Positions 9,234-64,000 are shown, numbered from the stretch's first letter. The stretch is DNA of 64,000 bases from Thermodesulfovibrionales bacterium (GCA_041082235.1 JBDOIG010000079.1:5860-69859); one strand, 5' to 3'. Program-made: numbers and translations. The notes: generated by a model not told the origin, from the sequence alone.

Positions 9234-9310
9234 AAAGGAGCTTCGCTCCTTTGAAAAATGGAATAAAATTTTATTCCATTAAACTTTTGAAGGGCTCCGC
9301 ACTTCAAAAG
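9234..9310 (-). repeat. Composite double-hairpin repeat, copy A (hairpin 9234-9252, perfect 24-bp AT palindrome 9257-9280, hairpin 9284-9310)
   Basis: The reverse complement ttcaaaggagcgaagctccttt matches ttcaaaggggcgaagccccttt at 39532-39553 at 20/22 positions. cttttgaag..cttcaaaag parallels cttttgaggg..ccctcaaa at 39464-39488. Confidence 0.7.
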
Positions 9311-9510
9311 AACTGCTTCTATTTAGTTATACATAAAGATAGTAGTAATAGTAGGTTTATGAGGGTTGTTAGTAGAAAGACTGAACTTAGTTTTATTAAT
9401 GTAATTAAAGGTGCTTAAGGATATTTAAGTTCTGTTGATTGGGATGTTGATAATTACAGACAGATTAAATGAAACTGTTGGTTAAAGGATATTAACATAG
9501 TATCCACATA
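9311..9510. other. Candidate oriC / dnaA upstream control region
   Basis: AT-rich and non-coding, directly upstream of dnaA. DnaA-box-like 9-mers: gTATCCACA (9500-9508, 8/9), TTATCaACA on the minus strand (9445-9453, 8/9) and TTATaCAtA (9327-9335, 7/9). The dnaA-dnaN (10 bp) and dnaN-gyrB (88 bp) gaps are too short to hold an origin. Confidence 0.4.
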
Positions 9511-9555
9511 TTGGAAGGGTGGGATATAAAGGAGTTACTAACAGGTGTTAGTAAG

Positions 9556-10893
9556 ATGTTGAAAAAGAGTCAAGAAGAGATATGGGAAAAGATCCTCCTC
9601 AAGATAGAGGAGAGGCTTGGTAAGGGTTCCTTTGAGTTATGGTTTAAACCATTAAAACTTATTGATTTAAAAGAAGATTATGCTGTTTTTGAGGTTCCCA
9701 ACAGGTTCTTTAAAGAATGGATAGAGGAAAATTATCTCAATTATCTTACAGAGGCGTTTTCTGAAATTGCAGGCTTTACAGGTCAGTTCAAACTCAGGAT
9801 TGCTGAAAAGGATAAAGAATTAAAAAAAGAGGTTCTGCAACTTGAAAACAGAACAAAGAAACTTGCCAGTAAGGGTATATTTCTTAATCCACGATACACC
9901 TTTGAAAATTTTGTTGTTGGGCCCTCAAATCAGTTTGCACATGCTGCGGCAAGGACTGTCTCAGAACAACCTGGTTCAGTCTATAGCCCCCTCTTTATAT
10001 ATGGTGGGGTCGGCCTGGGCAAGACGCATCTAATAAATGCTATAGGTAATTATATTGTAGATAATATCTCTGGGTTAAGCGTCCTTTATGTACCCATAGA
10101 ACAGTTTACAAATGAGGTGGTTGCTGCTATCAGACATCAAAAGATGGCTGAATTAAAGGAAAAGTATAGAAATGTAGATGTGCTTCTTGTTGATGATATT
10201 CAGTTTATCTCCGGCAAGGCCACCGTACAGGAAGAGCTTTTTCATACATTCAACTCCCTTTATGATAAACAGAAGCAGATTGTTATGGCAAGTGACAGGC
10301 CACCGAAGGAGATACAGGACATCCCTGATAGATTAAAGACAAGATTTGGTATGGGACTTATTGCAGACATACAGCCTCCAGAGTACGAGACAAAGATAGC
10401 CATCCTCAACAAGAAGGCAGAGAAAGAAAAGATAAAACTTCCTGAGGAGGTATGCCACTGGCTTGCAAAGAAGATTAAATCCAATATAAGAGAGCTTGAG
10501 GGATGTCTTATAAAACTTGCAGCACACAGTTCACTGACCGGCTTACCTATCACCATGGATATGGCAAAGATTGTATTGAAGGATGTTATCGCAGATGAAG
10601 ATAGACCTGTGACACCCGAGCTTATCCAGAAGACTGTTGCAGAGTCTTTTGGTTTGAAGGTCCAGGACCTCCGGATAAAAAGGAGGACAAAAGAGGTAGC
10701 TATTCCAAGACAGGTCGGTATGTATATTGCAAGGGAGCTGACAGAGTTGTCCCTTTCCGATATAGGAAAGCACTTTGGCGGAAAAGACCATTCAACAGTT
10801 ATTTATGCCTGCAAACAGATTGAAGAAAAGATGTCAAAGGATGAAAAATTTAAAAACCTAGTTAAATCAATAATAGACAGGATTAAATCCTAA
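9556..10893 (+). CDS. dnaA: Chromosomal replication initiator protein DnaA
   Basis: AAA+ motifs PLFIYGGVGLGKTHL and LLVDDIQF, and a C-terminal DNA-binding domain (IPRQVGMYIARELTELSLSDIGKHFGGKDHSTVIYA). The ORF track starts at TTG 9511. I prefer ATG 9556 (MLKKSQEEIWEKI..) because it has an AGGTG 8 nt upstream and a DnaA box abuts 9511. Confidence 0.95.
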   Translation: MLKKSQEEIWEKILLKIEERLGKGSFELWFKPLKLIDLKEDYAVFEVPNRFFKEWIEENYLNYLTEAFSEIAGFTGQFKLRIAEKDKELKKEVLQLENRTKKLASKGIFLNPRYTFENFVVGPSNQFAHAAARTVSEQPGSVYSPLFIYGGVGLGKTHLINAIGNYIVDNISGLSVLYVPIEQFTNEVVAAIRHQKMAELKEKYRNVDVLLVDDIQFISGKATVQEELFHTFNSLYDKQKQIVMASDRPPKEIQDIPDRLKTRFGMGLIADIQPPEYETKIAILNKKAEKEKIKLPEEVCHWLAKKIKSNIRELEGCLIKLAAHSSLTGLPITMDMAKIVLKDVIADEDRPVTPELIQKTVAESFGLKVQDLRIKRRTKEVAIPRQVGMYIARELTELSLSDIGKHFGGKDHSTVIYACKQIEEKMSKDEKFKNLVKSIIDRIKS

Positions 10894-10903
10894 GGAGGCA
10901 ATT

Positions 10904-12004
10904 ATGATCCTTGCAGTATCAAAAAATGAGCTTATGAAAAGTCTCACAGATATCCAGGGTATAGTTGAAAGAAAAAGCACCATGCCGGTACTCAGCCATT
11001 TTCTACTTGATTGTCATAAGGAACCGTATCTTTATGCCACAGACCTTGATACAGCAATTAAAATTCAGAATCTCAATTTTAAAATTCAAAAAGAAGGTTC
11101 TATTGCTATACCTGCAAAGACCTTTATTTCCCTCATTAAGGAGCTTGAGGGAGATATTGTGCTTGAGGCCAAGGAGAATTTTAAACTCAAGATAGCAGCC
11201 GGGAAGGTCAGTGCAGAAATTGCCTGTCTTAATCCTCAGGAATTTCCTGCCTGGCCAGAGATAGAGGATGGGAATGAATTAACCCTGCCTGTAAAGGCCT
11301 TAAAGGATATAATAGAAAAGACTGCCTATGCTGCAAGCGATGCTGACACAAGGTATGTCTTTAATGGTATCCTTCTTCATCTTCAGAAGGAAGGGCTGCA
11401 TGCAGTAGGCACTGATGGCCACAGGCTCGCCCTTTTAAGACTAGCGAGCAAGGACTTACAATGTAATGTTCAGGATGAATTTAAGGTAATCCTGCCCAAA
11501 AAGGCCATTACTGAACTTAAAAGACTTATCAGCGATGATACCGTAACAATAAGAATCGGGAAAAACCATGTTCTTTTTAAGACTCCTAATATGGCGTTTC
11601 TTACAAAGGTTATAGAAGGTACCTATCCAAATTACGAGCAGGTAATACCAAAGGCTTCTACAAAGACCCTTATTTCATTAAAAACAGACCTTGAGAAGGC
11701 CTTGAGGAGGGTATCAATTATATCAAGAGAAAGATCAAATGCTATTAAGCTTGACATGAAAGACAATACCTTAATAGTGAGTGCATCAAATCCAGACCTC
11801 GGAAGTGCTGAGGAGGAACTTTCTGTAAAATACGATGGAGAACCCTTTACCATAGGATTTAATGCAAGGTATATCCTTGATGCACTTGAGGTTATAGAAA
11901 AAGATGAGATTGTTATGCAATTTAATGATCCCCTTGGCCCTTCATTATTAAAAGGTGCAGGAGATGAAAATTATCTTTCGGTAATTATGCCAATGAGGAT
12001 TTGA
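10904..12004 (+). CDS. dnaN: DNA polymerase III beta sliding clamp
   Basis: 366 aa, positioned directly after dnaA. Typical length with a ...SVIMPMRI C-terminus and a three-domain clamp pattern. Confidence 0.95.
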   Translation: MILAVSKNELMKSLTDIQGIVERKSTMPVLSHFLLDCHKEPYLYATDLDTAIKIQNLNFKIQKEGSIAIPAKTFISLIKELEGDIVLEAKENFKLKIAAGKVSAEIACLNPQEFPAWPEIEDGNELTLPVKALKDIIEKTAYAASDADTRYVFNGILLHLQKEGLHAVGTDGHRLALLRLASKDLQCNVQDEFKVILPKKAITELKRLISDDTVTIRIGKNHVLFKTPNMAFLTKVIEGTYPNYEQVIPKASTKTLISLKTDLEKALRRVSIISRERSNAIKLDMKDNTLIVSASNPDLGSAEEELSVKYDGEPFTIGFNARYILDALEVIEKDEIVMQFNDPLGPSLLKGAGDENYLSVIMPMRI

Positions 12005-12089
12005 TAGAGTAATCCATGATGAGTGAAGCGATACAGGAGATAGTAAAAACTCTTTACCCATTACGGATTACTGATTAAGGAGGTTATGA

Positions 12090-14543
<2,454 letters not shown>

Positions 14544-14544
14544 A

Positions 14545-14615
14545 TAGAGCAGCAGAGCGGCAGTTTTAAATAAGGAATAAATTATTTTCCTTAACGTGCT
14601 ACAGCTCTACTGTAC
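14545..14615. repeat. GCAGCAG-armed imperfect hairpin repeat, copy 1 (gyrB-gyrA spacer)
   Basis: atagagcagcagagcggcagtt matches ttagagcagcagtgcagcagtt at 62599-62620 at about 19-20 of 22 positions. The right arm ctacagctctactgtactat is an imperfect inverted copy. An inner hairpin aaggaa-taaattat-ttcctt is present. Confidence 0.55.
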
Positions 14616-14632
14616 TATTAGGAGGTAAATCA

Positions 14633-17080: not shown

Positions 17081-17086
17081 TATCTG

Positions 17087-18835: not shown

Positions 18836-18955
18836 TAGCAGGGCATGCCTCAAGACTTTATGAGGTGAAGCAGGTTATGTTCGGTAAGCTTGATTAAAAG
18901 GCTTACATTAAGGCACACCCTGTAATTTCTATCAGCAAAGGGGCAAAGGGGGGCC

Positions 18956-18985
18956 TTGACAAGGCAGGGGGTTTTAATGTATAAA
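18956..18985 (+). promoter_or_regulatory. Candidate sigma70-type promoter of the nuo operon (TTGACA-18 nt-TATAAA)
   Basis: TTGACA at 18956-18961 and TATAAA at 18980-18985. The first ATG of the nuoA ORF (18991) lies 5 nt after the -10 hexamer and has no SD. Confidence 0.4.
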
Positions 18986-18990
18986 AACCC

Positions 18991-21633: not shown

Positions 21634-21712
21634 TTTGAGGGACAAAGTCCCTCAAACTCCTCTTTTTAATATAATTTTATATGGGGTTTTTAAAGGGGTT
21701 TCACCCCTTTAA
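21634..21712 (+). repeat. Composite double-hairpin repeat, copy B, between nuoD and nuoEF
   Basis: Hairpin tttgagggac-aaa-gtccctcaaa (21634-21656), then ctcctcttttt plus the AT palindrome atataa-tt-ttatat, then hairpin ttaaagggg-tttca-cccctttaa (21690-21712). The left half is near-identical to 39464-39500. Confidence 0.75.
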
Positions 21713-21715
21713 GTT

Positions 21716-23494
21716 ATGAAAACAAAACTTACTTCCGGGTTTGAGACTTCTTATCCCTCAAAGGCATCCCTTGTCATGCCATTACTTCATCTTCTGCAAA
21801 AAAGAGAAGGTTATATTTCAGACAGGGGTATTATTGAGATATCAAATACCACAGGGCTCAGCCCGGTCTTTATAAAGGGTGTCTATACCTTTTATAGTTT
21901 TTATAATTCCAGGCCGCCTGGCAGGCATATCATTCAGATATGCAGGAATGTAGCCTGCATGACAATGGGAGCAGACATTCTTATTGAGCATCTTATTAAA
22001 AATCACGGATTTAAAGAAATCGGTCACGGGATATTCACTTATGGCCCTGAACCATCAGCTATCAGCCTTATGATAACTGAATGCATTGGCGCCTGTGGCA
22101 TCGGGCCTGCCATGCTTGTAAATGATAGCCTCATAGGAAGACTTACTAAGGAGAAAATAGATAAAATTTTAAAGGACCTCCAAGCAGACCATAGTCCTAA
22201 CCCCCAGGATAATTCTATTGATGTTTTTCCCATGAGACCAGAGAGCTATCTTTTAAGAACCCTTGATTGCATAGAGTTCTCTTCTTATAAGGCAAGGGGT
22301 GGTTATGAGGCCTTTAAAAAGGTGCTCGGCATGAAGCCAGAGCAGGTCATAGATATTATTAAGGGGTCTGGCTTGAGGGGAAGGGGTGGTGCAGGTTTTC
22401 CTACAGGGATGAAATGGGCCTTTGCAAACAAGGACCCAAAAACTCCTAAATATCTTATTATAAATGCTGATGAGGGAGAGCCAGGGACTTACAAAGACAG
22501 GGTGCTGCTTGGCAGGACCCCTCATCAGATAATTGAGGGAATGTTAATAGGTGGCTATGCAATTGGTGCATCAAGGGGGTATATTTATGTCAGATATGAG
22601 TATCCTGATGTTATTCCAGTCCTTGAGGGGGCAATAGAAGAGGCAAGGCAGGAGGGCCTTCTTGGGAAGAATATCCTTGGAAGTGGTTTTAATTTTGATA
22701 TTGCTATTCACAGGGGTGCTGGTGCCTATATCTGTGGTGAAGAGACAGCCCTTATTGAATCCATTGAAGGAAGCAGGGGCCAGCCAAGGATAAGGCCACC
22801 CTTTCCTGTCAACAGTGGATATGATGGAAAACCAACAGTTGTGAATAATGTGGAGACCATTGCTAATATACCCCTTATCCTTAATCTAGGAGTAGAGAAT
22901 TATTCAAAGATAGGCTCAAAGGAAGCACCAGGACCAAAGCTTTTTTCTATAAGCGGTGTAAAAAAACCGGGGGTCTATGAATTACCGATGGGCATAACCG
23001 TAAAAGAGATTTTGGAAATATCTGGTGGTCCCGTCTCTGGTACGATTAAGGCAATAATACCAGGTGGGCTTTCAACACCAGTGCTTACAAATGAGATGCT
23101 TGACTGCCCGATGGATTTTACAGGTCTGCAGAGATACAAAAGCATGCTCGGAACTGGTGGTTTGATGGTCTTTGGAGAGGAGACCTGTATGGTAAGGCTT
23201 GCAATGAGGGCAATGAGTTTTTACAGACATGAGTCCTGCGGTAAATGTACACCCTGCAGGGAAGGAACTGGATGGCTTGAGAATATTTTAAAGAGGATAG
23301 AAGATGGAAGGGCAAAGGAAGAAGATATCTCTTTACTGAAAGAGGTCTCAAATAACATATCAGGAAAGACCTTCTGTGCCCTTGGAGATGCTGCAGCCTG
23401 CGTTATTGGAGGAGTACTCAAATATTTTGAGGAAGAATTCAGAGAGCATATAAGGCAGGGAGGCTGTCAATTTAAAAGGGGGCCGAATGAATAA
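21716..23494 (+). CDS. nuoEF: Fused NADH-quinone oxidoreductase subunits E and F
   Basis: 592 aa in a single ORF. The N-part is NuoE-like (LLHLLQKREGYIS, 2Fe-2S ligands ICRNVAC and ECIGACG). The C-part is NuoF-like (GLRGRGGAGFPTGMKW, INADEGEPGTYKDR, ESCGKCTPCREG). Confidence 0.9.
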   Translation: MKTKLTSGFETSYPSKASLVMPLLHLLQKREGYISDRGIIEISNTTGLSPVFIKGVYTFYSFYNSRPPGRHIIQICRNVACMTMGADILIEHLIKNHGFKEIGHGIFTYGPEPSAISLMITECIGACGIGPAMLVNDSLIGRLTKEKIDKILKDLQADHSPNPQDNSIDVFPMRPESYLLRTLDCIEFSSYKARGGYEAFKKVLGMKPEQVIDIIKGSGLRGRGGAGFPTGMKWAFANKDPKTPKYLIINADEGEPGTYKDRVLLGRTPHQIIEGMLIGGYAIGASRGYIYVRYEYPDVIPVLEGAIEEARQEGLLGKNILGSGFNFDIAIHRGAGAYICGEETALIESIEGSRGQPRIRPPFPVNSGYDGKPTVVNNVETIANIPLILNLGVENYSKIGSKEAPGPKLFSISGVKKPGVYELPMGITVKEILEISGGPVSGTIKAIIPGGLSTPVLTNEMLDCPMDFTGLQRYKSMLGTGGLMVFGEETCMVRLAMRAMSFYRHESCGKCTPCREGTGWLENILKRIEDGRAKEEDISLLKEVSNNISGKTFCALGDAAACVIGGVLKYFEEEFREHIRQGGCQFKRGPNE

Positions 23495-35831: not shown

Positions 35832-36088
35832 GACTAAAATCCATGCTGTTTTATCTTTAAAGCTACACTTTTAAAAAACCCGAAACTTACATAAAGAAAT
35901 AGCAAGATATGCCTCAAAACTTTTATAAGGCAGCAATGATCAAGATACAGGATTCAGAATACAGATTTTTAAAATTATCATGTATCATGGATTTTAGGGT
36001 AGCGCAATAAAGGCCTCTCGGCATGTCCTGCTACCTCTATCGGTACTTTTTGGATGTGCATGACTTCTCCACTGGCACTCTTTATTTA

Positions 36089-36097
36089 TGTTATAAT
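36089..36097 (+). promoter_or_regulatory. Candidate extended -10 promoter element upstream of hfq (TGtTATAAT)
   Basis: tgttataat read at 36089-36097, about 50 nt upstream of the hfq ATG. No good -35 element. Confidence 0.35.
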
Positions 36098-36146
36098 CAA
36101 CCTGTGCTATAGAAATATTAATCTATAAAAATAAAAGAGGTGATAT

Positions 36147-36383
36147 ATGTCCAAATCACAGAATTATCAGGATGCCTATCTTAATCAATTAAGGAAGGAA
36201 AAGGTCCCTGTAACTGTGTTTCTTACAAATGGAGTAAGGCTTAAAGGAATTATCAAGGGGTTTGATAACTTTGTAATAATAATAAAAGAGGCCAATACCA
36301 TGATGGTCTATAAGCATGCAGTTTCTACTATTGTTCCGGACAGGGAGATTGAGTTCACCCCGCAGGAGGAGGTGGCGAAGTAA
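36147..36383 (+). CDS. hfq: RNA chaperone Hfq
   Basis: [39 protein letters not shown]...[12 protein letters not shown] (Sm1/Sm2 motifs). SD aaagaggtg. Confidence 0.95.
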
Positions 36384-39465: not shown

Positions 39466-39555
39466 TTTGAGGGACAGGGCCCCTCAAACTCCTCTTTTAT
39501 AATTTTTAATTAAAAATTTATTTTCAGGGATTTCAAAGGGGCGAAGCCCCTTTGA
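39466..39555 (+). repeat. Composite double-hairpin repeat, copy C (hairpin 39466-39488, 18-bp AT palindrome 39501-39518, hairpin 39533-39555)
   Basis: tttgaggg-acagggc-ccctcaaa, then ctcctcttttat, then aatttttaattaaaaatt, then caaaggggc-gaa-gcccctttg. The last hairpin overlaps the stop and last 7 codons of the gene 39533..41470. Confidence 0.8.
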
Positions 39556-41470
39556 GAATCTCCATAACAGATGGGAATCTTTCAAGTTCTGTATGGGGTA
39601 AAAAGAGGGCAGATAGATATTCATCCATAAAACCTCTTGATACAGAGAGCTCCATATAGGTCATCTTCTGACTTATTTCCTCTGCCTCCTTCCGCATCCT
39701 TTTTGAAAGCAGACACAGATAGGCCCCTGCAATGGATGTATTTCCAAGAAAAACAAATCTATCAACAGGCAGGTCAGGAAGCATTCCAAGAAGTATTGCC
39801 TTCCTGGGGTTAAGATAATTTCCAAATCCACCTGCTATATAAACCTTCTCAATGGAGTTGAGATCAAGCCCTGCTTCTTTTAAGATAAGTGAAACGCCTG
39901 CATAGATTGCAGCCTTTGCCCTCATGATATTCTCAATGTCAGGTTCAGTGAGAACAATACTGAAGGTTGTCTCACCTCTTCTGTCCTCATAAAAGACATA
40001 TTCAGGACCATCATCTCCTTCTCTAATCCTTTTTGTTCTTTCCTTGATAAATTTTCCTTTCTGATCAATTATTCCATTTAAAAACATCTCTGAGATTGCA
40101 TCAATCATACCAGAACCGCATATCCCGATAGGCTTCCCATTTCCGATAACTGAAAATTCTGGTTCAAGGGTGTTTGGATTAAATCTAATCTCTTCTATTG
40201 CACCCTTTGTTGCCCTCATGCCAGATTTTATTCCGCTTCCTTCAAAGCAAGGACCTGCCGAGCAGGCTGCTGTCATCAACCATTCATTGTTTCCAACTAC
40301 TATCTCACCATTTGTTCCTATATCCATAAAAAGGGATATCTCAGGGTGTCTGTGCATCCTGGATGCAAGGACACCTGCTACAATATCTCCACCAACATAG
40401 CTGGCCACACAGGGGATGGTGTATACAGGGGCCTGAGGATTTATGTTAAGTCCTGCTGTACCTGCCCTCCAGACAGGAAAGAAATTTACAGTTGGTATAT
40501 AGGGCTCTTCCCTTATTGAACCTGGATCAAGCCCCCAGAAGATGTGACTCATGGTTGTATTGCCTGCTATGGTAGCTGATAGGATATCCTCTTTGTTTAT
40601 AGAGTGTCTAGTTGCCATTGAATTTGTAATTGTGTTTATGTCCTCAATAACTGCCTTTGTCAATTCCTCAAGCCCATTCTTTTCAGTGGCATATATTATC
40701 CTTGTTATTACATCGTCACCATATCTTATCTGTGAGTTATATGTGGAGCCTACATCAACTATCCTTCCATCATCAAGGTTAACAAGATATACAACAACTG
40801 TTGTAGTTCCGATATCCACAGCTATGCCATATCTTGGTGTATCTTTCTGGGCTGATATAAACAGGGCCTCCAGTGAATTGGTGCCGGAGGTAACAGTCCC
40901 CGTTTCTGCTAAGCTACAGCCAAGGCAGTCAGCATAGTGGACCCTTATGTCCCAGTCATTTTTTCTCAGGGCACCGGAAAGGTCTTTTAAAAATCTATTT
41001 GAGAATCTCAGGCCTTCAAGACCTTTGTCTTTTAATGCCCTTTTCAGTCTTTCAAGGTCACTGATATTATCAATAATGGTAGGATGAGGAAGATTAAGGT
41101 CTAAATACCTTACAAGAGGTGATATATCCCCTCCAAGAGATAGAAGAAGCTCAAAAAGGTCTCTACCTTTTGAGATGGCAATCTTGTCTCCAACAGTAAG
41201 CTTTGAATCCTCTGGAACCTCAATAATAAGGTCAGCAAGCGGGATTGTCTGGCAGGCAAGGACAAAGCCCTTTTTTCTTTCCTCAGCAGTAAGCTTGCCA
41301 GAACCTTTAACCTCAAAGGAGCCGTCAATAATCCTTATCCTGCATTTCCCGCATGTTCCTTTTCCACCGCAGGAAGCAACAAGATAAAATTCAGCCTCCT
41401 TAAGGGCCCCAAGGACAGTCTGTCCCTTTCTGATAGAAAAACTATCACCACTTGTAAGCTGAAGCTTCAT
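39533..41470 (-). CDS. RACo-like reductive activator of corrinoid proteins (2Fe-2S ferredoxin domain + ASKHA/DUF4445 ATPase)
   Basis: 645 aa. N-terminal plant-type ferredoxin motif ASCGGKGTCGKCRIRI..ACQT. DIGTTTVV and MDIGTNGEIV ASKHA phosphate motifs. Size is close to known RACo proteins. Confidence 0.7.
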   Translation of the reverse strand: MKLQLTSGDSFSIRKGQTVLGALKEAEFYLVASCGGKGTCGKCRIRIIDGSFEVKGSGKLTAEERKKGFVLACQTIPLADLIIEVPEDSKLTVGDKIAISKGRDLFELLLSLGGDISPLVRYLDLNLPHPTIIDNISDLERLKRALKDKGLEGLRFSNRFLKDLSGALRKNDWDIRVHYADCLGCSLAETGTVTSGTNSLEALFISAQKDTPRYGIAVDIGTTTVVVYLVNLDDGRIVDVGSTYNSQIRYGDDVITRIIYATEKNGLEELTKAVIEDINTITNSMATRHSINKEDILSATIAGNTTMSHIFWGLDPGSIREEPYIPTVNFFPVWRAGTAGLNINPQAPVYTIPCVASYVGGDIVAGVLASRMHRHPEISLFMDIGTNGEIVVGNNEWLMTAACSAGPCFEGSGIKSGMRATKGAIEEIRFNPNTLEPEFSVIGNGKPIGICGSGMIDAISEMFLNGIIDQKGKFIKERTKRIREGDDGPEYVFYEDRRGETTFSIVLTEPDIENIMRAKAAIYAGVSLILKEAGLDLNSIEKVYIAGGFGNYLNPRKAILLGMLPDLPVDRFVFLGNTSIAGAYLCLLSKRMRKEAEEISQKMTYMELSVSRGFMDEYLSALFLPHTELERFPSVMEILKGASPL

Positions 41471-45709: not shown

Positions 45710-46981
45710 TTATAGACAGATGGGTTTGCAGGAGAAATCCTGTGTTATATAGGAGAATCTCTTCTTAAACTCTATCGGTGATATCCCTGTAAGCTTAGAT
45801 AGCTTCTTTAAATTAGTTCCTCTGAAATCATTTCGCTCAAGCCGTATCATGTACATCCTGCCGACCCTGTAGGTCTCTGAATTTATATCCACAAGCCTTG
45901 GACTTATCCTCCCTTTGAAGTCTGTCAATTCTTTAAAGGCAATAGGATGAAGTCTTCCCTCATAGAAGGTGATTATAGAACCTTTACCGCCTTCAAGCAG
46001 AAATCTTACAGCACCATATCCAAGATTCCTTGTGTATTCCACATCAAAGGGTATAGGAGCCGCTGCCCTCAGTTCATAGCCGATATTTTTATCAACAATA
46101 GTTACATCTATTCCGTATTCCTTAAGTGTCTTTTTTACTTCATGCTTTAAGACCCTGCCAAGCTGTATCTCTGAAAGTCTGATCCTTCCTGTCTCATCCC
46201 TTTCAAGATACTCATACTTGCTGAGTTCATTTATATCAATTTTTTCAGCTATCCCCTCTGCCAGTATTGCCACTCCATGGTTTCTTAACATGGAAAGTCT
46301 TTTTATTATTGAGCCCGCCAGTATATCTGAGATCATCCTGAGAGGAACGACCCTTTCCTTAAATTCCTCAGGGATAAGGGTTATTGTTGCACCTGATGAT
46401 TTACCAATTCCAAGGGCGAGGTGACCTGCATGCCTTCCCATGGTAGTTACAAAATACCATCTTTCCATTGTCCGTGCATCTTCCATTATATTTTTTACAA
46501 TCTCCACACCCCAGTGCCTTGCTGTCTCGTATCCGAATGTTGGCATCCCGCCTGGCAGGGGTATGTCATTATCAATCGTTTTTGGCACATGGGCAACTGA
46601 TAACCATCCTGCCTCTTTCTGGATCCAGTTTGCCATAAAGGCAGTACCTTCTCCACCAATTGTTATTAGATAACGAATACCTAACTCTTTCAATGTCTTC
46701 AACAGCACCTTGAATTTTTCCTTTACCCTGTCAGGATAATCCCTGGATGTGCCAAGAATGGAGCCTCCCTGTGTATGGATCCTCGAGACATCATTGATGG
46801 TAAGTTTTATAATTGAACTTTTATCACCATTGAATAGGCTTTTAAAACCTCCCTTAACGCCTATCACCTCATAGCCTTCATTTATAGCCTCTATAGTTGC
46901 TGAACTGATGACACCATTTATACCAGGTGCAGGACCACCCCCAATAACTATTCCGAAATATCCCTTTTTCATTCTTGCCAT
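45710..46981 (-). CDS. pfk: 6-phosphofructokinase (PfkA family; ATP versus PPi specificity not resolved)
   Basis: GGGPAPGINGVI, IGGEGT, PKTIDNDI and MGRHAGHLAL motifs. 423 aa. Confidence 0.85.
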   Translation of the reverse strand: MARMKKGYFGIVIGGGPAPGINGVISSATIEAINEGYEVIGVKGGFKSLFNGDKSSIIKLTINDVSRIHTQGGSILGTSRDYPDRVKEKFKVLLKTLKELGIRYLITIGGEGTAFMANWIQKEAGWLSVAHVPKTIDNDIPLPGGMPTFGYETARHWGVEIVKNIMEDARTMERWYFVTTMGRHAGHLALGIGKSSGATITLIPEEFKERVVPLRMISDILAGSIIKRLSMLRNHGVAILAEGIAEKIDINELSKYEYLERDETGRIRLSEIQLGRVLKHEVKKTLKEYGIDVTIVDKNIGYELRAAAPIPFDVEYTRNLGYGAVRFLLEGGKGSIITFYEGRLHPIAFKELTDFKGRISPRLVDINSETYRVGRMYMIRLERNDFRGTNLKKLSKLTGISPIEFKKRFSYITQDFSCKPICL

Positions 46982-47092
46982 AAATTACTGTGATGAAGTC
47001 CCTCTAACTCCCTGATATATTAAATTTATTATTTGAGCTTCAAGAGGCAAGGCCTCTTTATAGCACTGTATGATTTTTGCTCAGGAAACTTT

Positions 47093-48379
47093 TTATTTAA
47101 CCTTTGCCCTCACAATTTCCACAGTATTTGTAACCCTGAGTTTTTTAAATAGTAATTCAAACCTCGCTTCCAGCTCATCTCTAATCCTTGCCTTAACATC
47201 TTCTGGAAGGTCCCACCACCTTTTCTTTAATGCACCAAATCCCTTTTTCCTCACCTTGTATATAAACTGTTCCTCTGTTTCACCCTCTTTTTTCTCTGAT
47301 AAAAATTCTTTTTTAAGATATTCATAGACCTCCTCCCTGAAGCTTGATGGAAGATGTTTACTTTCATAAAGTATATTTTGAAAACCTGTTGCAAGATGTA
47401 TCTCCGCCGTGCCCACCTGGGGGAACATATCAAAGGCATCTTCAGGTAATGTGGAGGCTCCGTGCTGAACAGCCCCAGCAAGACCGTATTCCCTCCTTGC
47501 TATTTCTGAGAGATTTTTGAGTGTCTCAAAATCTATGCTGACCTGTTTGAGGCTTCCATCAGGAAGCACTATGCCTCCATGAGAGGTACCGGTCTGAACA
47601 CTTATCTTGCTGAGACCATCGCTGTATCCCAGAAATTTTTCCGATTTTTTGGGGACCCCTTTATCCTTTGCTTTAAATACCCTATTAAATCCATCAAGAA
47701 AGGCCCTTAATTCTTCGGGTGTGCTGTTTTTATGTCCTATCTCTCCTATCTCTCCACCTATGGATATGGAGACTCCTTCTGGTTCAAGGGATCTTATGTG
47801 TTCAGCAAGTATTGCAGTATATTCAAAATTAGGGCGCTGCTGTTCAGAAATATCATCTCTGGATAAATCCACAAGGGTTGAGCTGTCAATGTCTATATTA
47901 TAAAACTCAGCCTCTATTGCCTCTCTGATTAATTTTTTAAGATAATTAATCTCACCATCCGGGTCTTTTTCAAAGTTTCTTTTTACAATCTGAAAGTGAT
48001 CACCCTGAAGAAAAACAGGCCCTCTGTATCCTTCCCTTACAGCTGCAGAAAGGATAACAGCACTGTATTCAAGAGGCCTCTGCCTTGTATATCCTATCTC
48101 TGAGCGAGCAATCTCAAAGATAAATGCCCCGACATTGTATTGAACAGCCTTTCTAAAGGCAGCCCTTGCAACATCATAGGTGAGCCCCCTGATGTTTATG
48201 GCTGGGACAGTAAACTTAGGATAGTCCTTTGCAAAATATTCATAAAGCCCCTTTATGGAGGCAGGCCAAACGCCCCGTGACTTTGCCTCTTCTTTTAACT
48301 GAATCAGGACCTCTCTTTTTTTATCTTCATCTTCAGTAAATACAGCTTTATAAACCCTTTCATCAAGCAAATTACTCAC
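47093..48379 (-). CDS. fba: Class II fructose-bisphosphate aldolase (long form)
   Basis: PVFLQGDHFQ, VQTGTSHGG and AVQHGASTLP motifs. GTG start overlaps the stop of the upstream small ORF (GTGA). Confidence 0.85.
   Translation of the reverse strand: MSNLLDERVYKAVFTEDEDKKREVLIQLKEEAKSRGVWPASIKGLYEYFAKDYPKFTVPAINIRGLTYDVARAAFRKAVQYNVGAFIFEIARSEIGYTRQRPLEYSAVILSAAVREGYRGPVFLQGDHFQIVKRNFEKDPDGEINYLKKLIREAIEAEFYNIDIDSSTLVDLSRDDISEQQRPNFEYTAILAEHIRSLEPEGVSISIGGEIGEIGHKNSTPEELRAFLDGFNRVFKAKDKGVPKKSEKFLGYSDGLSKISVQTGTSHGGIVLPDGSLKQVSIDFETLKNLSEIARREYGLAGAVQHGASTLPEDAFDMFPQVGTAEIHLATGFQNILYESKHLPSSFREEVYEYLKKEFLSEKKEGETEEQFIYKVRKKGFGALKKRWWDLPEDVKARIRDELEARFELLFKKLRVTNTVEIVRAKVK
47627..47655. repeat. 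C/A..T/G palindromic unit inside fba (minus-strand reading ccccaaaaaatcgg-aaaaatttctggg)
   Basis: Imperfect stem, 8/9 (one G-T pair) plus one bulged T. Translated on the minus strand as VPKKSEKFLGYS. Confidence 0.65.
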
Positions 48380-53298: not shown

Positions 53299-53311
53299 AA
53301 AGAGGGAGAGC

Positions 53312-56192: not shown

Positions 56193-56349
56193 ATCTGTCC
56201 TTTATTTGTTTTGCAAACTCCATGATATCAGGCAATTTATTTTTAACAGTGATAATATTCAGCCAGCCAGAAAGATAGGCCAAAGAAACCTCTCCTTTTT
56301 CTTTAAGTTTGAGCAAGACCTTCTGAAGGTCTTCCAGATTCCTATCCAT
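56182..56349 (-). CDS. Possible 55-aa ORF between hemC and cobA-hemD (unverified)
   Basis: My translation is MDRNLEDLQKVLLKLKEKGEVSLAYLSGWLNIITVKNKLPDIMEFAKQIKDRYGR. Its stop overlaps the cobA start by 11 nt. The SD is weak. Confidence 0.25.
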   Translation of the reverse strand: MDRNLEDLQKVLLKLKEKGEVSLAYLSGWLNIITVKNKLPDIMEFAKQIKDRYGR

Positions 56350-56430
56350 CCCTGAAACCTTTAATTAAGATCTATTTGCAAAGGTGCAGAAGGCTTCCGA
56401 GCTTCTGCTTACTTATAGTTTTGGTGTCCT

Positions 56431-58691: not shown

Positions 58692-59509
58692 CAGCCCTTG
58701 AAACCATGATAAGTCTTCAATAATAGGGTCACACCGAAGAATGTAAACATAACAAAGATAAACCCGAGGATAGATAGAAATGCTGCCCTTCTGCCCCTCC
58801 AGCCAGCAACCAGTCTTGCATGGAGAAGCAGGGCATAGATAAACCATGTGATAAGAGACCAGGTTTCCTTTGGATCCCATCTCCAGTATGTCCCAAAGGC
58901 TGTTTCAGACCATACAGCGCCTGTAATTATGGCAAGGCTGAGAAGTGGAAAACCGAGGGTAATCAACCTGTAATTTATTTCATCAAGGCTCTGAAGACTT
59001 GGTAGTTTGCTGAATAATCCTGAAGGATGTTTTGATTTAAGATAATATTCTTGAACGAGGTACATTATGCCAATTACAAATGAAAGGGCAAAGGCAGCAT
59101 TACCGAGAAAGGCAAGAAAGGTATGAACAGGTAACCAGTAACTTCTTAGAAGTGGATTCAGGGGCTTCAGTTCCCTTGGAAGTAAAGATGAGGATAACAT
59201 TAATACAAAGATAAGTGGCATAATGAAACAACCAAGAAGCCCTAATTTATATCTTGACTCAAGGAAAAAGAACAGAACCAGGATAGCCCAGGCATAAAAG
59301 GAAGAGGCTTCATGAAGATTGGTAACAGGTAGATACCCACCCTGAAAATATCTCAGGACAATAGAAACAGTATGAAAGAAGAATCCACCAATCGCTATAT
59401 ATATAACAGGTCTTGATGTGGCCCTTGACCCCATCCACAGCTCTACCATGCTTACTATGGCAGCTGCAAAATAGAGTGTTAAGGCAATCTCAAATAAAAT
59501 GGTCCCCAA
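58691..59509 (-). CDS. ccsA: CcsA-family cytochrome c assembly / HemX-like membrane protein
   Basis: 272 aa with about 8 TM segments. Trp-rich motif WSETAFGTYWRWDPKETWSLITW. Position upstream of hemA matches hemX-type operons. Confidence 0.75.
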   Translation of the reverse strand: MGTILFEIALTLYFAAAIVSMVELWMGSRATSRPVIYIAIGGFFFHTVSIVLRYFQGGYLPVTNLHEASSFYAWAILVLFFFLESRYKLGLLGCFIMPLIFVLMLSSSLLPRELKPLNPLLRSYWLPVHTFLAFLGNAAFALSFVIGIMYLVQEYYLKSKHPSGLFSKLPSLQSLDEINYRLITLGFPLLSLAIITGAVWSETAFGTYWRWDPKETWSLITWFIYALLLHARLVAGWRGRRAAFLSILGFIFVMFTFFGVTLLLKTYHGFKG

Positions 59510-59575
59510 TTTTACCTCAGCTATTACTTTCGCTGCCGAAAAGCTGGATGCCGGAAAGATAAATGCCTTCAGGTT

Positions 59576-60214
59576 TTAAAAACATCCGAGCTCGCAATTT
59601 GTAATCTTGATGCCCAGGGCATCAGCCATCTCTCCAACTTCTCTGTATTGAAGTCCAAGGGTCTCAGCAATCTGTCTTGCGATAGCGCAGGATATCCTGT
59701 TATTTATTGCCCTTTTCTGGAGTTCCCGAGATAACAGCTTTTTTTTATTAATTAATTCCTCTGTTTCTTCCAAGGCTTCTTCCATCTTATCAGGTCTTAC
59801 GATTATGTCTGCCCGCTCTTTTACCTTTATTGCTGATTCCTTTGGAGGTCTTTCAAGACCATTTAAAAATATTACTACATCTGGCTTTAAAAACTCAATC
59901 GGGCTGTTTCCTTCAATGATTATCCCTTTATAATTTGATAGCCGCTCCAGACTCATGGAAAGTAATTCAGATAGTGCTTCTAAAGGACATTGAACCCACA
60001 GAACCTCACCTGCACCTGCCTCAAGGTATTTCTTTGTGTCCTTTCCTTCTACAGAAAGTATATCCTTATTATTAACAATCGTTGAGTAAAAACCTGTCTT
60101 TGTGTATTTTATAACTGCCCAGTCTTTACCGAGTGCCCTGAGAAGCCTTGTTCCAAAGGTTGTCTTTCCACAACCGCTGTAAGAACCACCTATGAGAACA
60201 ACAAAAGGCTTCAT
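59576..60214 (-). CDS. MobB-like P-loop NTPase with C-terminal Cys-containing domain
   Basis: VVLIGGSYSGCGKTT P-loop and GKDTKKYLEAGAGEV (MobB-like). The C-terminal RISCAIARQIAETLGLQYREVGEMADALGIKITNCELGCF is unassigned. ATG 60214 is preferred over the track's TTG 60229. Confidence 0.5.
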   Translation of the reverse strand: MKPFVVLIGGSYSGCGKTTFGTRLLRALGKDWAVIKYTKTGFYSTIVNNKDILSVEGKDTKKYLEAGAGEVLWVQCPLEALSELLSMSLERLSNYKGIIIEGNSPIEFLKPDVVIFLNGLERPPKESAIKVKERADIIVRPDKMEEALEETEELINKKKLLSRELQKRAINNRISCAIARQIAETLGLQYREVGEMADALGIKITNCELGCF

Positions 60215-60216
60215 AA

Positions 60217-60225
60217 TGTATAATA
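60217..60225. promoter_or_regulatory. Overlapping divergent extended -10 elements (TGtATAAT on +, TGaTATTAT on -)
   Basis: Plus strand: TATAAT at 60219-60224, 7 nt before ATG 60232. Minus strand: TATTAT at 60225-60220, 5 nt before ATG 60214. Neither ATG has an SD. Confidence 0.35.
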
Positions 60226-60231
60226 TCAAAA

Positions 60232-60660
60232 ATGCTCAGGATAGCTGTTATAGATGGTCAGGGTGGTGGTATTGGTTCCCTTATTGTGAAGAGGCTGAGG
60301 GAGGAGTTTGCAGAGACAGTGGAGATAATTGCCCTTGGCACAAATTCCGCCGCTACCAGCCAGATGATGAAGGCAAAGGCAAATAAGGGAGCTACTGGAG
60401 AAAATGCTATTGTCTATAATTCTCAGAGAGTTGATCTTATAATTGGCACCATGAGTATAATTATTGGAAATGGCATGCTGGGAGAATTAACGCCTGCAAT
60501 GGCTACAGCAATCTCCACTGCAGGTTGTCCAAAGTTTTTGCTGCCATTGAATCAGGAGCAGGTGCATATAGTGGGTGTTAAAAAAGAGCCACTTCCCCAC
60601 CTTGTAGAAGAGCTAATAGGACTGGTGAAGGAATACAAAAGGGATATAGAAAAAATTTAA
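60232..60660 (+). CDS. DUF3842-like protein
   Basis: 142 aa. MLRIAVIDGQGGGIGSLIVKRL...ALGTNSAATSQMMKA...GENAIV matches my recollection of the DUF3842 family. Confidence 0.55.
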   Translation: MLRIAVIDGQGGGIGSLIVKRLREEFAETVEIIALGTNSAATSQMMKAKANKGATGENAIVYNSQRVDLIIGTMSIIIGNGMLGELTPAMATAISTAGCPKFLLPLNQEQVHIVGVKKEPLPHLVEELIGLVKEYKRDIEKI

Positions 60661-60678
60661 TCTGTTGGAGGTGTAAGC

Positions 60679-60870
60679 ATGTGTGAGGCAAATGCCTATG
60701 TATATGAAGATGGCAAAGAGATACTTTTTCTTGAGGGAGTTGATATCCTGATACCAGAAGGTGATAGGTTATTTCTCAGGAATCTTTTCGGAGAACAGAA
60801 GACCTTTGAGGGCAGGATAAGGGAGATTTCTCTCATAAAACACAAGATCGTCCTCGAAAGACTGAAATGA
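60679..60870 (+). CDS. cooT: CooT-family small nickel-binding protein
   Basis: 63 aa. N-terminal MCEANAYV (Cys2) and ...FGEQKTFEGRIREISLIKHKIVLE are typical of the CooT/PF10133 family. SD ggaggtg. Confidence 0.7.
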   Translation: MCEANAYVYEDGKEILFLEGVDILIPEGDRLFLRNLFGEQKTFEGRIREISLIKHKIVLERLK

Positions 60871-61655
60871 CAGAGAAGGTCTGGAGGCTTATTGATACAG
60901 GACCGGAAGATGCAGATTTTAATATGGCGCTTGACATTGCCATTTCTGAATCTGTATGGAAAAGGATAGTTCCTCCCACCTTGAGATTTTATTCATGGAA
61001 TAGGCCATCACTGAGCCTGGGATATTTTCAGACTCCAAGGGGTATTTCCTTTAAATCCTGCTCCTTTCTTGATATTCCTGTGGTAAAGAGGCCAACAGGT
61101 GGAAGGGCAATCTTACACGGGAGGGAACTTACTTATAGCTTTTCTTCTAGTTATAATGATTTCTTCAAAGAGGCAGGACTCTTTGAAACATACAGGATCA
61201 TTTCCATGTGTTTTGTTGAGGCCTTAAGGAGTTTCAATCTACCAGTGACCATGGAAGATAGAAGAAATGCAAGATACGGCCATAATCCTTTATGTTTTCT
61301 CTCAAGCTCTTATGGTGAGGTCATCCTCTGGAATAAAAAGATCCTTGGCAGCGCCCAGAGGAGATTAAAAGAGGGTTTTCTTCAGCAAGGAAGTATGCCA
61401 TATTATATAGAAAGAGAGATTATAAAAAGGGTATTTAATTATTCAGATTCTGCAATTGCGTTGTCCGGACTTTTTGAGTTACTCAAAGAGCAGGGGATGG
61501 ATACAATAATAGATGAGGATAGCTTAAAAAGTATAATCATAAGGACCTTTGAAAGAAGGTTTAACATTAAATTTATTAAAGAAAGACCTTCAGAAGCTGA
61601 AATAAAAAGGGCAGAAGAAATCAGGGATTCCTTATTAGTTATAACTGGTGAATAG
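60867..61655 (+). CDS. Lipoate-protein ligase / octanoyltransferase family protein (LplA/LipM-like catalytic domain only)
   Basis: LRFYSWNRPSLSLGYFQ, VKRPTGGRAILHG, PLCF and KKILGSAQRR (catalytic Lys context). The start overlaps the cooT stop (ATGA). Confidence 0.75.
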   Translation: MTEKVWRLIDTGPEDADFNMALDIAISESVWKRIVPPTLRFYSWNRPSLSLGYFQTPRGISFKSCSFLDIPVVKRPTGGRAILHGRELTYSFSSSYNDFFKEAGLFETYRIISMCFVEALRSFNLPVTMEDRRNARYGHNPLCFLSSSYGEVILWNKKILGSAQRRLKEGFLQQGSMPYYIEREIIKRVFNYSDSAIALSGLFELLKEQGMDTIIDEDSLKSIIIRTFERRFNIKFIKERPSEAEIKRAEEIRDSLLVITGE

Positions 61656-61709
61656 GATTTTTCTTCACCCCGTCACCAATTCACCAAAAGAATTCACTAA
61701 ACCCTTAAC

Positions 61710-62588
61710 TCACTTGTCTTTCAACTGAACATTAAATAGATATACAAAGGCAGAGGAAAGAATAGAGAGATTTATATAAATCTGGATAATTGAGAGGATG
61801 AGCTGATAGAGGGCAAGGCTTGAAAGGCTTTTAAAAAAAGTCCCCAGCAATCCAAAAGAGATGGTAAGTATTATTGCCCCGATGCTTAAGAGACTGTAAA
61901 AGACAAGGGCATCAGGCTTGCCCATAACAAAGTTAAAAGAATCTTTCAGGGCTGAAATGGTCTTCTCCTCCTTTAAAATCATAAAACCAGCCGCATAAGT
62001 AAAGATTGCCATAGAGAATATTACTGCACCAAGTGAAAGCAGTATTGACAGGAGGTTTAAAAAGTTCCTTAAAAAATCCCTTAAAAGCTCCCCACTGATT
62101 GAAGTAGCCACCTTTGTAAGACCACTAAAAAGTCCTGCTAAAAAAGATATCATGATGAGCATAAGGAGTCCAGAGATTGATAACAGAAGGAATCTTTTAA
62201 ATAGTCCCTTCCCGAGGCTTGTAAAAAGTCTCCATGAGTAATTCTCTCTGCCACTGATGAAATACATAATTACACCTGACGTACCTGCAATGGCATATAT
62301 GAAAATAATTGATGCGATGATGATATAAATAAACAGACTGAGGATCACTGTGATTACAATGGTAAGATAGGCAGAAAGTTCTCCTTCTTTAAATATCAGT
62401 TCTATTAGCCCTTTAAATCCATTTTCAGGGAATTCAATTCCTGTTTTTGTAAATACTATGATGAGAGGTACTCCCACAATCAGGATAAACAGGAAAAAGG
62501 CTAATATCAGGGCACCTATCTGAACAAAAAGGAGCTGATAATTTTTGTTGATGCTGTCAATGCCTTGTTTTAATGCTTCTCTGTATCT
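61710..62588 (-). CDS. Polytopic membrane protein, unknown function
   Basis: About 6-7 TM segments. I prefer ATG 62588 (MRYREALKQG..) because the track's TTG 62648 extension lies in the GCAGCAG repeat. Confidence 0.5.
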   Translation of the reverse strand, partial: RYREALKQGIDSINKNYQLLFVQIGALILAFFLFILIVGVPLIIVFTKTGIEFPENGFKGLIELIFKEGELSAYLTIVITVILSLFIYIIIASIIFIYAIAGTSGVIMYFISGRENYSWRLFTSLGKGLFKRFLLLSISGLLMLIMISFLAGLFSGLTKVATSISGELLRDFLRNFLNLLSILLSLGAVIFSMAIFTYAAGFMILKEEKTISALKDSFNFVMGKPDALVFYSLLSIGAIILTISFGLLGTFFKSLSSLALYQLILSIIQIYINLSILSSAFVYLFNVQLKDK

Positions 62589-62600
62589 CATACTCCCTTT

Positions 62601-62684
62601 TAGAGCAGCAGTGCAGCAGTTAAATTTAAGGAAAGATAATCTACTCAATGCTAAGAACTACTGCTCTGTTGCTCTCCTGCTCTA
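62601..62684. repeat. GCAGCAG-armed imperfect hairpin repeat, copy 2
   Basis: tagagcagcagtgcagcagtt...aagga...actactgctctgttgctctcctgctcta. The outer 8 bp tagagcag/ctgctcta pair perfectly. Confidence 0.55.
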
Positions 62685-63791
62685 TTTGTTGTATTTTTTA
62701 ATTATATTATAAAAGCTGTCCCTTTCTACAGGTACCCTGCCAGCCTTTCTTATCAGAACAATAATTTCTTCTACTGATAGGGACTGAGGGGTAGTTACAC
62801 CTGCCTCATGGGATATCTTTTCCTCCATAACCGTTCCTTCAAGGTCATCAGCACCCCAAAGAAGTGCCATCTGTGCAAGCCTTTCACCAAGCATTATCCA
62901 GTATGCCTTTATATGATCAAAATTATCAAGCACAAGTCTGCTTATTGCAATAGTCTTGAGGTCATCAATAGCGCTTCTTTTATTCTCATTCCCAATATAA
63001 GGTAGCGGGATGAAGGCCTGAAATCCTCCTGTCCTGTCCTGGAGGGCTCGGAGCCTGAGTAGATGCTCTACCCTGTGCTCAAGGCCTTCCGCATGACCAT
63101 AAAGCATAGTTGCGTTTGATCTTATACCCATCCTGTGTGCAATCTCCATTATCTCAAGCCATCTTTTTGATGATATCTTCTGGGGACAGAGGATTCCCCT
63201 CACCCTTTCATCAAATATCTCTGCACCGCCACCTGGCATGAGGTCAAGCCCTTTTTCTTTTAGTATTTCAAGGACTTTTTGAATTGAAAGACCGGATATC
63301 TTTGAGAAATGGTCTATTTCAGTAGCAGTATAGGCCTTTATCTTTAGAAAAGGAAAGGACTCTTTTATTGAAGAGATTATGTTTACATAATGCTCAAATC
63401 TCCAGTCTGGATGAAGCCCCCCAACAATGTGCACCTCTTGGAAACTTTTGCCTTCTGATAGATGAGAGCTTATCTTATTGAGAATTTGCTCTATGGTAAG
63501 TTCAAAGGCGCCGGCCTCACCTTTTGAGCGACTGAAAGCACAGAACCGGCATCTATTTATACAGAGGTTTGTGGGATTTATGTGCATATTTCTTATAAAA
63601 AAGGCATAATTACCATTCCTTGAGATGGCCACCTCACTGGCAATCCTTCCAAGATTGAAGATGTCATCATCCATATACAGGGTCAGGGCATCCTCTCTGG
63701 AGAGTCTCCTTCCCGCAGCCCAAAGAATCCCCTTGATCCCCTGGGTCTCCCTATGGCTCCGTGCAGATTCCTTAATCGATGATAAAGACAT
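62682..63791 (-). CDS. Radical SAM menaquinone (futalosine pathway) enzyme, MqnE/MqnC family
   Basis: 369 aa. NPTNLCINRCRFCAFSR (CxxxCxxC), and GGLHPDW, MLYGHAE and GGFQAFIPL are typical of the MqnE/MqnC/CofH group. The exact member is not resolved. Confidence 0.65.
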   Translation of the reverse strand: MSLSSIKESARSHRETQGIKGILWAAGRRLSREDALTLYMDDDIFNLGRIASEVAISRNGNYAFFIRNMHINPTNLCINRCRFCAFSRSKGEAGAFELTIEQILNKISSHLSEGKSFQEVHIVGGLHPDWRFEHYVNIISSIKESFPFLKIKAYTATEIDHFSKISGLSIQKVLEILKEKGLDLMPGGGAEIFDERVRGILCPQKISSKRWLEIMEIAHRMGIRSNATMLYGHAEGLEHRVEHLLRLRALQDRTGGFQAFIPLPYIGNENKRSAIDDLKTIAISRLVLDNFDHIKAYWIMLGERLAQMALLWGADDLEGTVMEEKISHEAGVTTPQSLSVEEIIVLIRKAGRVPVERDSFYNIIKKYNK

Positions 63792-63932
63792 GGAAAATTA
63801 TAACATGAATATATGAATATCTGTAATCTATCCAGAATAAATCTTATTAGGGCATTCAAATTACTGACCCCCAGATTTGCTATTAGAAACATTTCCTGAT
63901 TAGCGGGGTATGCCTCAAGGCCTTTATAAAGC

Positions 63933-64000
63933 TCAAAGGGGCCTTTGCCCCTTTGAAACCCGAGAAAATAAATTTTTAATTTTTAAAATATAAGGGGAGC
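63933..64000 (-). repeat. Composite double-hairpin repeat, copy D (truncated by window end)
   Basis: tcaaaggggc-cttt-gcccctttga hairpin (63933-63956). The reverse complement of 63957-64000 (cttatattttaaaaattaaaaatttattttctcgggttt) aligns with 39494-39533. Confidence 0.7.

Follow-up and report, generated by a model that had tools for sequence, protein, structure and literature searches.

REP/BIME-like elements are known mostly from Proteobacteria. In E. coli and other Proteobacteria, repetitive extragenic palindromic (REP) elements are short GC-rich palindromes of about 23 nt that lie outside genes in many copies and in either orientation, and in bacterial interspersed mosaic elements (BIMEs) hairpins of two related yet distinct types alternate, set apart by defined spacers, as single units or in tandem clusters. 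These elements occur inside operons and at gene ends, and their occupancy varies between relatives. A conserved tetranucleotide, GTAG or CGTC, at one palindrome end marks classical REPs, and 'untagged' REP-like stem-loop families are found in Deinococcus, Mycobacterium, Bordetella, Brucella and cyanobacteria (PMC3733652). REPINs are inverted REP doublets moved by REP-associated tyrosine transposases, or RAYTs (Bertels and Rainey, PMC3116915). Here we analyze a 64,000-nt stretch of DNA from a Thermodesulfovibrionales bacterium (GCA_041082235.1 JBDOIG010000079.1:5860-69859; hereafter the window), in which five copies, A to E, of a double-hairpin unit are dispersed. We conclude that these copies probably belong to a non-autonomous, REP/BIME-like palindromic repeat family of Thermodesulfovibrionales, an order of the phylum Nitrospirota to which the host was assigned from its NuoD and RACo homologues.

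The new family shares with REPs and BIMEs the size, GC-rich palindromy, extragenic occurrence and free orientation of its hairpins, the alternation of two related but distinct hairpin types, the single or clustered arrangement, the placement inside operons and at gene ends, and the variable occupancy. It differs from REPs in having no GTAG or CGTC terminal tag and in its near-perfect stems, which do not have the bulge typical of REPs, and from BIMEs in that neighbouring hairpins overlap by TTTGA instead of being separated and that the long AT-rich spacer is often itself palindromic. Its hosts are Nitrospirota and one WOR-3 metagenome-assembled genome (MAG), and no RAYT gene was identified in the sequences examined. 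Like REPINs, the units have two hairpins, a similar size and a spacer, are non-autonomous and form populations that differ between close relatives; unlike REPINs, their two hairpins differ in sequence instead of repeating one REP in inverted form, units frequently stand in head-to-tail arrays, and no single-copy RAYT flanked by the repeat was seen. The untagged REP-like families and MITEs (miniature inverted-repeat transposable elements) such as Correia/NEMIS are also small intergenic stem-loop repeats, many of them with no known dedicated transposase, although neither group has any evident sequence relationship to the family described here. Members of both groups can likewise be transcribed together with the genes beside them and can change gene ends; unlike in Correia-type MITEs, there is no regular target duplication here, and no promoter or IHF motif was assigned.

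Results

Four copies with a shared two-hairpin architecture had been predicted in the window, and all four were recovered at positions within 1–3 nt of those first given. Three window matches to the hairpin-1 pattern were found with up to 3 mismatches (≤3), against 0.07 expected, a number reached in 0 of 100 shuffles, and the hairpin-2 pattern matched three times against 0.03 expected. The longest inverted repeat of the whole window is the match between copies C and D (46 nt, 87%), and B and C share 33 nt at 91%. A covariance model with a 27-unit seed recovered copy D, which was not in the seed, as well as a fifth, degenerate copy, E, missed in the original prediction. With further copies present in other genomes and both patterns well above chance, a fortuitous similarity does not account for the family. 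In the window copies, hairpin 1 follows the pattern TTTGA(G/A)G..C-NNN-G..C(T/C)TCAAA and hairpin 2 the pattern TT(C/T)AAAGG(G/A)G(C/T)-N3-4-(G/A)C(C/T)CCTTT(G/A)A; the former is followed by a short tail rich in C and T (CTCCTC in copies B and C) and the latter is preceded by G-rich bases. The 20/22 identity claimed for hairpin 2 of A and C holds over ttcaaaggNgcgaagcNccttt.

To define the family, 27 units were aligned, namely copies A, B and C and 24 further full units extracted from relatives; the statements on consensus and pairing below refer to this alignment. The consensus order is hairpin 1 (TTTGAGGGGC-NNN-GCCCCTCAAA), CTCCCC, an AT-rich linker (..TTCCTTATT), GGGGT and hairpin 2 (TTCAAAGGGGC-gaa-GCCCCTTTGA). 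In the architecture shared by copies A to D, the tail after hairpin 1 reads CTCC(C/T)C and the bases ahead of hairpin 2 read GGGG(T). Units measure about 77–90 bp, with a linker of 25–40 nt that is often palindromic itself. Hairpin 1 has a 10-bp stem (TTTGAGGGGC/GCCCCTCAAA) and a 3-nt loop, and hairpin 2 a 10-bp stem (TCAAAGGGGC/GCCCCTTTGA) and a loop of 3–4 nt, so that each is 23–24 nt long and lies within the size range of REPs, which are short palindromes (20–40 nt) able to form a stem-loop. The outer arms form imperfect inverted repeats, TTTGAGGGGC agreeing with the reverse complement of TCAAAGGGGC at 7/10 positions. The units contain no open reading frames (ORFs). The Rfam scan proposed for the window gave no match at gathering scores, and a search in E-value mode with copy C and one array returned weak generic hairpins far below threshold.

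Base pairing is the feature that has been conserved. Stem cells are paired in 94% of cases, a value that drops to about 61% when the partners are slid by one column, and nine pairs show compensatory double changes compared with 2.4 in column shuffles, none of 500 of which reached the observed value. Watson-Crick pairs fill 512 of the 540 cells of the two hairpins, and wobble is rare when read on either strand (3 G-T against 11 A-C). By contrast, the loops are free to vary: 16 different hairpin-1 loops occur among the 27 units, several of them as reverse-complement pairs. Folded as single strands, copies A, B and C form three hairpins on either strand, at −29 to −35 kcal/mol and with z-scores against shuffled sequences of −3.6 to −6.9 (A, −5.2 and −6.9; B, −4.5; C, −3.6 and −4.7), while the degenerate copy E has no stable overall fold (z −1.2). 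What is conserved is thus the Watson-Crick palindromy of both stems, and not the loops or most of the linker. Together with the rarity of wobble in both senses, this indicates that the selected feature is a palindrome on both strands and not a strand-specific RNA.

Palindromy of this kind, with little wobble, would also fit chromosomal sites bound by a protein that structures DNA (for example a nucleoid protein, gyrase or reverse gyrase), with the AT-rich palindromic linker as the place of binding. The interactions of E. coli BIMEs with IHF and gyrase are a precedent for protein sites kept by the host, and binding of IHF, DNA gyrase or Pol I is a property of BIMEs. The family's linker, rich in AT and in part conserved, is palindromic, the elements show no dependence on orientation, and one copy, A, is located between prfB and dnaA, close to the presumed origin. 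Direct evidence for such a role is lacking, however, and the linkers vary widely between copies, with three different palindromes in the window alone. The gain and loss of sites between close relatives, described below, also counts against sites kept by the host, and we regard this explanation as extremely improbable.

Relatives were found with a degenerate hairpin-2 pattern matching A, B and C, using one genome per species. The matches listed were strongly concentrated in the Nitrospirota MAGs CAZIIE01 (at least 16 loci) and WFMM01 (at least six), with at least one in another Nitrospirota MAG and at least one in the cultured Thermodesulfovibrio sp. N1. The flanking sequences have their modules in the order seen in the window, and the unit is present in two Thermodesulfovibrionales MAGs and in Thermodesulfovibrio sp. 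N1. Full units in the fetched loci (designated by L numbers) scored 55–100 bits with the covariance model. Unrelated genomes that carry only a palindrome resembling hairpin 2, of which there were many among the matches listed, scored 30–48 bits, so a full unit requires roughly 55 bits or more. Roseospirillum parvum 930I (L019, L021, L024, L047, L058, L074, L085, L089) has a high-GC multi-copy hairpin family of its own that matches the search pattern and is unrelated. Full units were also detected outside genomes labelled Nitrospirota, in the WOR-3 MAG JBDRUX01 (L044:6578-6655, 67 bits; also L013:271-343), whose hairpin 1 has a shorter stem (TTTGAGGGG-AAA-CCCCTCAAA), and in the unclassified MAG CALGPO01 (L037:3592-3674 and 7749-7829, 69 bits). 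Horizontal spread, mis-binning or a wider distribution might account for these members. In the JGI metagenomes the double-hairpin junction was matched in only two contigs, both of which carry the unit, and viral contigs gave no match to the junction. Full-text literature searches by organism and repeat terms and by sequence strings returned no description of the family, which is apparently undescribed.

Tandem head-to-tail arrays of 2–4 units with a period of 71–88 nt are common in the relatives. At the array junctions, hairpin 2 and the following hairpin 1 have a TTTGA in common, by which they overlap, and an array may begin or finish with either of the two hairpins. Numerous CAZIIE01 contigs stop within or next to an array, the kind of break that a multi-copy repeat is expected to cause in an assembly. 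Linkers share homology between adjacent units and also between loci (for example ..TTCCTTATTGGGG); a clustered regularly interspaced short palindromic repeat (CRISPR) array, in which identical repeats are separated by unique spacers, was accordingly rejected. In CAZIIE01 a second repeat family, TAGGCTTAAGGCTGAAG...CTTCAGCC, often contributes a longer module in place of the AT-rich linker, which shows that the elements are of mosaic build. Further evidence of mosaicism is a module downstream of hairpin 2 in the relatives L056, L062, L017 and L059 (..CTACTATTTTCGGGG..CTGGGGGCAAAGCACCCAGCGTAACC).

Several observations were made on these and other modules. Members of the TAGGCTTAAGGCTGAAG ... CTTCAGCC family were located at L097:7237-7357, 317-347 and 9212-9228 and in the CAZIIE01 loci L033, L039, L045, L051, L062, L078 and L096, within the linker of the double-hairpin units; the window has no clear copy, only a weak look-alike at 1674-1716. 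A second small repeat of the window, TAGC(A/G)GGG(C/T)ATGCCTCAAG(A/G)C..TTAT.A.G, occurs at 18836-18867, 35900-35931 and 63901-63932, always on the plus strand, with 0.00 occurrences expected, and the third directly abuts copy D; an array in the relative L011 is likewise preceded by TTAGCAGGGCA. This small repeat may be a further mosaic module or a preferred neighbour; no exact match to it was present among the fetched loci. The spacer upstream of hfq (35832-36147) measures 316 nt in the window and 89 nt in the close relative L102 (5701-5791); only about 100 nt on the promoter-proximal side aligns between the two, and the extra sequence holds one TAGC..GCCTCAAG motif.

The family is thus a dispersed, intergenic and mosaic set of double hairpins, found in either orientation, tandem in some genomes, and gained or lost between close relatives. 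A simple ORF map placed 31 of 34 sites between genes, and copy C overlaps no more than the last eight codons of one. The flanking gene pairs at these sites are tandem, convergent and, twice, divergent; among co-directional pairs, about four units are sense and about seven antisense. In the window, where gene contexts were assigned by Pfam, the contexts originally proposed for the four copies were confirmed: copy A is flanked by prfB and dnaA and copy B by nuoD and nuoEF, copy C extends over a RACo-type gene's 3′ end, and copy D is placed upstream of an mqn-like gene.

Turnover was most evident at the sites of copies B and C. Copy B (21634-21712, plus strand; hairpin 1, 21634-21656; hairpin 2, 21689-21712; 77 bits as a seed member) occupies the entire 85-nt gap between nuoD and the fused nuoEF. 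The unit is identical in an independent assembly (L001), and independent Logan contigs from run SRR28530377 matched the window sequence, copy B included. An exact look-up of the RACo protein led to a 12.6-kb Logan contig from the same sample. None of the relatives examined has the element at this site: in L097, whose NuoD is 93% identical, a 121-nt gap holds the other repeat family (TAGGCTTAAGGCTGAAG ... CTTCAGCC), in relatives at 84–85% identity nuoD overlaps the next gene and leaves no gap, and one relative at 87% identity has an unrelated spacer. It would seem, then, that the repeats present at the nuoD/nuoEF hot spot differ from one close relative to another.

Copy C (39466-39555, plus strand; hairpin 1, 39466-39488; hairpin 2, 39532-39555; 78 bits, seed member) lies with its left end 45 nt from the start of hisI, and its hairpin 2 encodes the last seven codons and the stop codon of the RACo-type gene (39533-41470, minus strand). 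In L102/L103, whose RACo is 91% identical, a 65-nt spacer without any element separates RACo from hisI. The protein ends in ..MEILKGASPL* in the window and in ..MEVLK* in its closest homologue (window 39533-39556; L102:2440-2470), so that the window protein, whose ORF runs into hairpin 2, is six residues longer, and the element has rewritten the C-terminus of the gene. These two sites show that the element can land on a gene end or fill a gap within an operon. When the covariance model was applied to 25 kb of the closest relatives it detected no copies, whereas the syntenic stretch of the window holds both B and C.

The polymorphic presence of the elements, their size of 77–90 bp and the inverted-repeat character of their outer arms would also be expected of a classical MITE, that is, an internally deleted insertion sequence (IS) with terminal inverted repeats that is mobilized by a DDE transposase and generates target-site duplications. 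Copy C is indeed flanked on both sides by a 6-bp direct repeat, GAATCT. It is the sole exception, however: in 15 of 16 sites the flanking repeats were no longer than those of mismatched-flank controls, and the general duplication that had been looked for at the copy borders is therefore not there. Even at copy C, the empty site does not cleanly support a GAATCT duplication, as the relative's ..MEVLK* matches the ..MEILK that precedes the element-encoded tail in the window. A pre-insertion model that gives the C-terminus ..MEIQ* was rejected, given that the closest homologues end in ..MEVLK and ..MEILRS. Head-to-tail arrays with overlapping ends are atypical of MITEs, and no parent IS or transposase was seen near the 34 sites. 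A MITE origin is thus very unlikely.

To identify genes associated with the elements, the 148 ORFs within 2.5 kb of the 34 sites were compared all against all. This revealed no recurring transposase-like ORF, only ordinary paralogue families and syntenic orthologues. The absence of a recurrent associated gene fits a non-autonomous element, although a single-copy enzyme could still exist elsewhere in the genome.

A rival explanation is that the hairpins have been kept by the host to end or protect transcripts, as intrinsic or bidirectional terminators, blocks to 3′ exonucleases or intercistronic stabilizers, in which case their resemblance would reflect a shared function. Most copies do lie just downstream of a gene within co-directional pairs. 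REPs of E. coli are established stabilizers of upstream mRNA (see PMC3733652), and the hairpins described here are very stable on both strands, with stems maintained by compensatory change. In addition, a consensus scan flagged hairpin 1 followed by CTCCTCTTTT as terminator-like in copies B and C. T-rich tails are confined to these two copies, however, and copy A has no terminator-like site; in the family consensus hairpin 1 is followed by CTCCCC, and no T-run follows either hairpin on either strand. Copy B is sense-oriented within the nuo operon, and a genuine terminator at this point would sever nuoEF through nuoN from the transcript. Both orientations are found among the units, some of which separate divergent genes, and neither tandem arrays of 2–4 units nor the conserved CTCCCC, TTCCTTATT and GGGGT are necessary for termination. 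Finally, the sites are not conserved between close relatives. We therefore consider it unlikely that the family exists for a function of its RNA.

The remaining features of the window copies are as follows. Copy A (9232-9308, minus strand; hairpin 1, 9286-9308; hairpin 2, 9232-9255; 60 bits, seed member) lies 13 nt past the prfB stop codon and 202 nt ahead of dnaA. Its linker, ATGGAATAAAATTTTATTCC, recurs in CAZIIE01 units, which ties this copy firmly to the family. The AT-rich palindromic centres that had been described were all found: a perfect 24-nt palindrome in A (9257-9280), a perfect 18-mer in C (39501-39518) and arms of 6+6 nt around TT in B. Copy D (63933-64000, minus strand) is partial, consisting of hairpin 2 (63933-63957, with a 4-nt loop) and the linker, hairpin 1 being lost past the window end; it scored 36 bits (E about 2e-5) in spite of this loss and of its exclusion from the seed. 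The gene downstream of it, at a distance of 141 nt, encodes an MqnC/E-like radical SAM protein (62682-63791, minus strand), and exact-protein look-ups with three genes near the window end yielded no sequence extending it. In copy E (46985-47061, plus strand; 25 bits, E about 0.004), what survives of hairpin 1 is its right arm (GTCCCTCTAA), together with CTCCCT, a linker rich in AT and a relative of hairpin 2 (TTCAAGAGGCAAGGCCTCTTTATA). According to Pfam, this copy is flanked by genes for a class-II aldolase (47093-48379, minus strand) and PFK (45710-46981, minus strand). Orthology of copy E with the CAZIIE01 array beside PFK (L094) was rejected, as that array is downstream of PFK and copy E upstream of it.

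Some further observations concern the nuo operon. A degenerate remnant of the element had been proposed at 18935-18955. This sequence shares 14 nt (CAAAGGGGCAAAGG) with copy D, but it forms no hairpin, was not matched by the covariance model even at E ≤ 10 and is not conserved in L097, and its membership of the family is unconfirmed. It sits immediately upstream of the −35 box of the likely nuo operon promoter, TTGACA-N18-TATAAA (18958-18987), which is just upstream of nuoA and conserved in L097. The start codon of nuoEF (21716) is 3 nt past hairpin 2 of copy B (region 21689-21718), and no Shine-Dalgarno-like sequence is present at the usual −5 to −13 positions. This start is supported by the N-terminal motif YPSK.SLVMPLLH, which is common to L097. 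A degenerate hairpin 1 suspected in the 5′ coding region of nuoEF (21741-21765) was rejected, since the sequence encodes the conserved YPSK motif, as in L097.

Discussion

Of the three readings originally offered for these repeats, the REP/BIME-like one is supported, the MITE-like one is not in view of the missing general target-site duplication, and the terminator one finds no support at the level of the family. Several points nevertheless weigh against the REP/BIME-like assignment. No mobilizing enzyme was found in the 64 kb of this genome or in the pieces of about 8 kb from relatives, so that a RAYT-type mechanism can be drawn by analogy only. Neither the GTAG nor the CGTC tag, nor the complement of either, is present in the consensus, the conserved flanks being CTCCCC and GGGGT. 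Classical REPs reach high copy numbers, about 100 or more per genome; here the five copies in 64 kb are the sole direct copy-number figure, next to the at least 16 loci of CAZIIE01, whose contigs break at arrays. Differences in presence or absence between relatives could in principle represent deletion instead of insertion. Selection on RNA hairpins able to function in whichever direction they are transcribed would explain the palindromy conserved on both strands equally well, and the terminator-like calls in copies B and C belong on the same side. With neither tag in the consensus and the link to RAYTs by analogy only, we do not file the family as classical REPs and place it with the 'untagged' REP-like families.

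If the REP/BIME-like assignment is correct, the element would spread and persist as DNA, and its hairpins would be recognized by an enzyme provided in trans, for which an HUH/Y1 transposase of the RAYT type offers a precedent by analogy. Arrays might then grow by recombination or by re-insertion at the shared TTTGA. When transcribed, the stable hairpins would probably act as passive RNA structures at 3′ ends or between cistrons, which we take as a side effect and not as the reason for the existence of the family. The empty C site, CTTCAG, resembles the element end TTTGAG, and solo units have C...G flanks, which hints at end-directed insertion. A bolder proposal is that the family represents a third, 'TTTGA-bounded' class of REP-type elements beside the GTAG and CGTC classes, moved by an unrecognized hairpin-specific enzyme (HUH/Y1 or other) of Thermodesulfovibrionales and WOR-3 that inserts at TTTGA, the elements re-targeting their own ends and so building overlapping arrays; we rate this as decidedly unlikely.

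An apparently undescribed family of Nitrospirota thus joins the REP/BIME-like elements, and it does so without the tags on which their current classification rests. In practical terms, such elements break metagenome assemblies and can be mistaken for terminators or CRISPR-like arrays. They alter gene ends, as at the C-terminus of RACo, and occupy gaps of essential operons, as between nuoD and nuoEF. Because occupancy differs between relatives at 91–93% protein identity, the elements are possible strain markers and a handle on recent genome dynamics in largely uncultured bacteria. The copy carried by the cultured Thermodesulfovibrio sp. N1 makes both the function and the mobility of the family testable.

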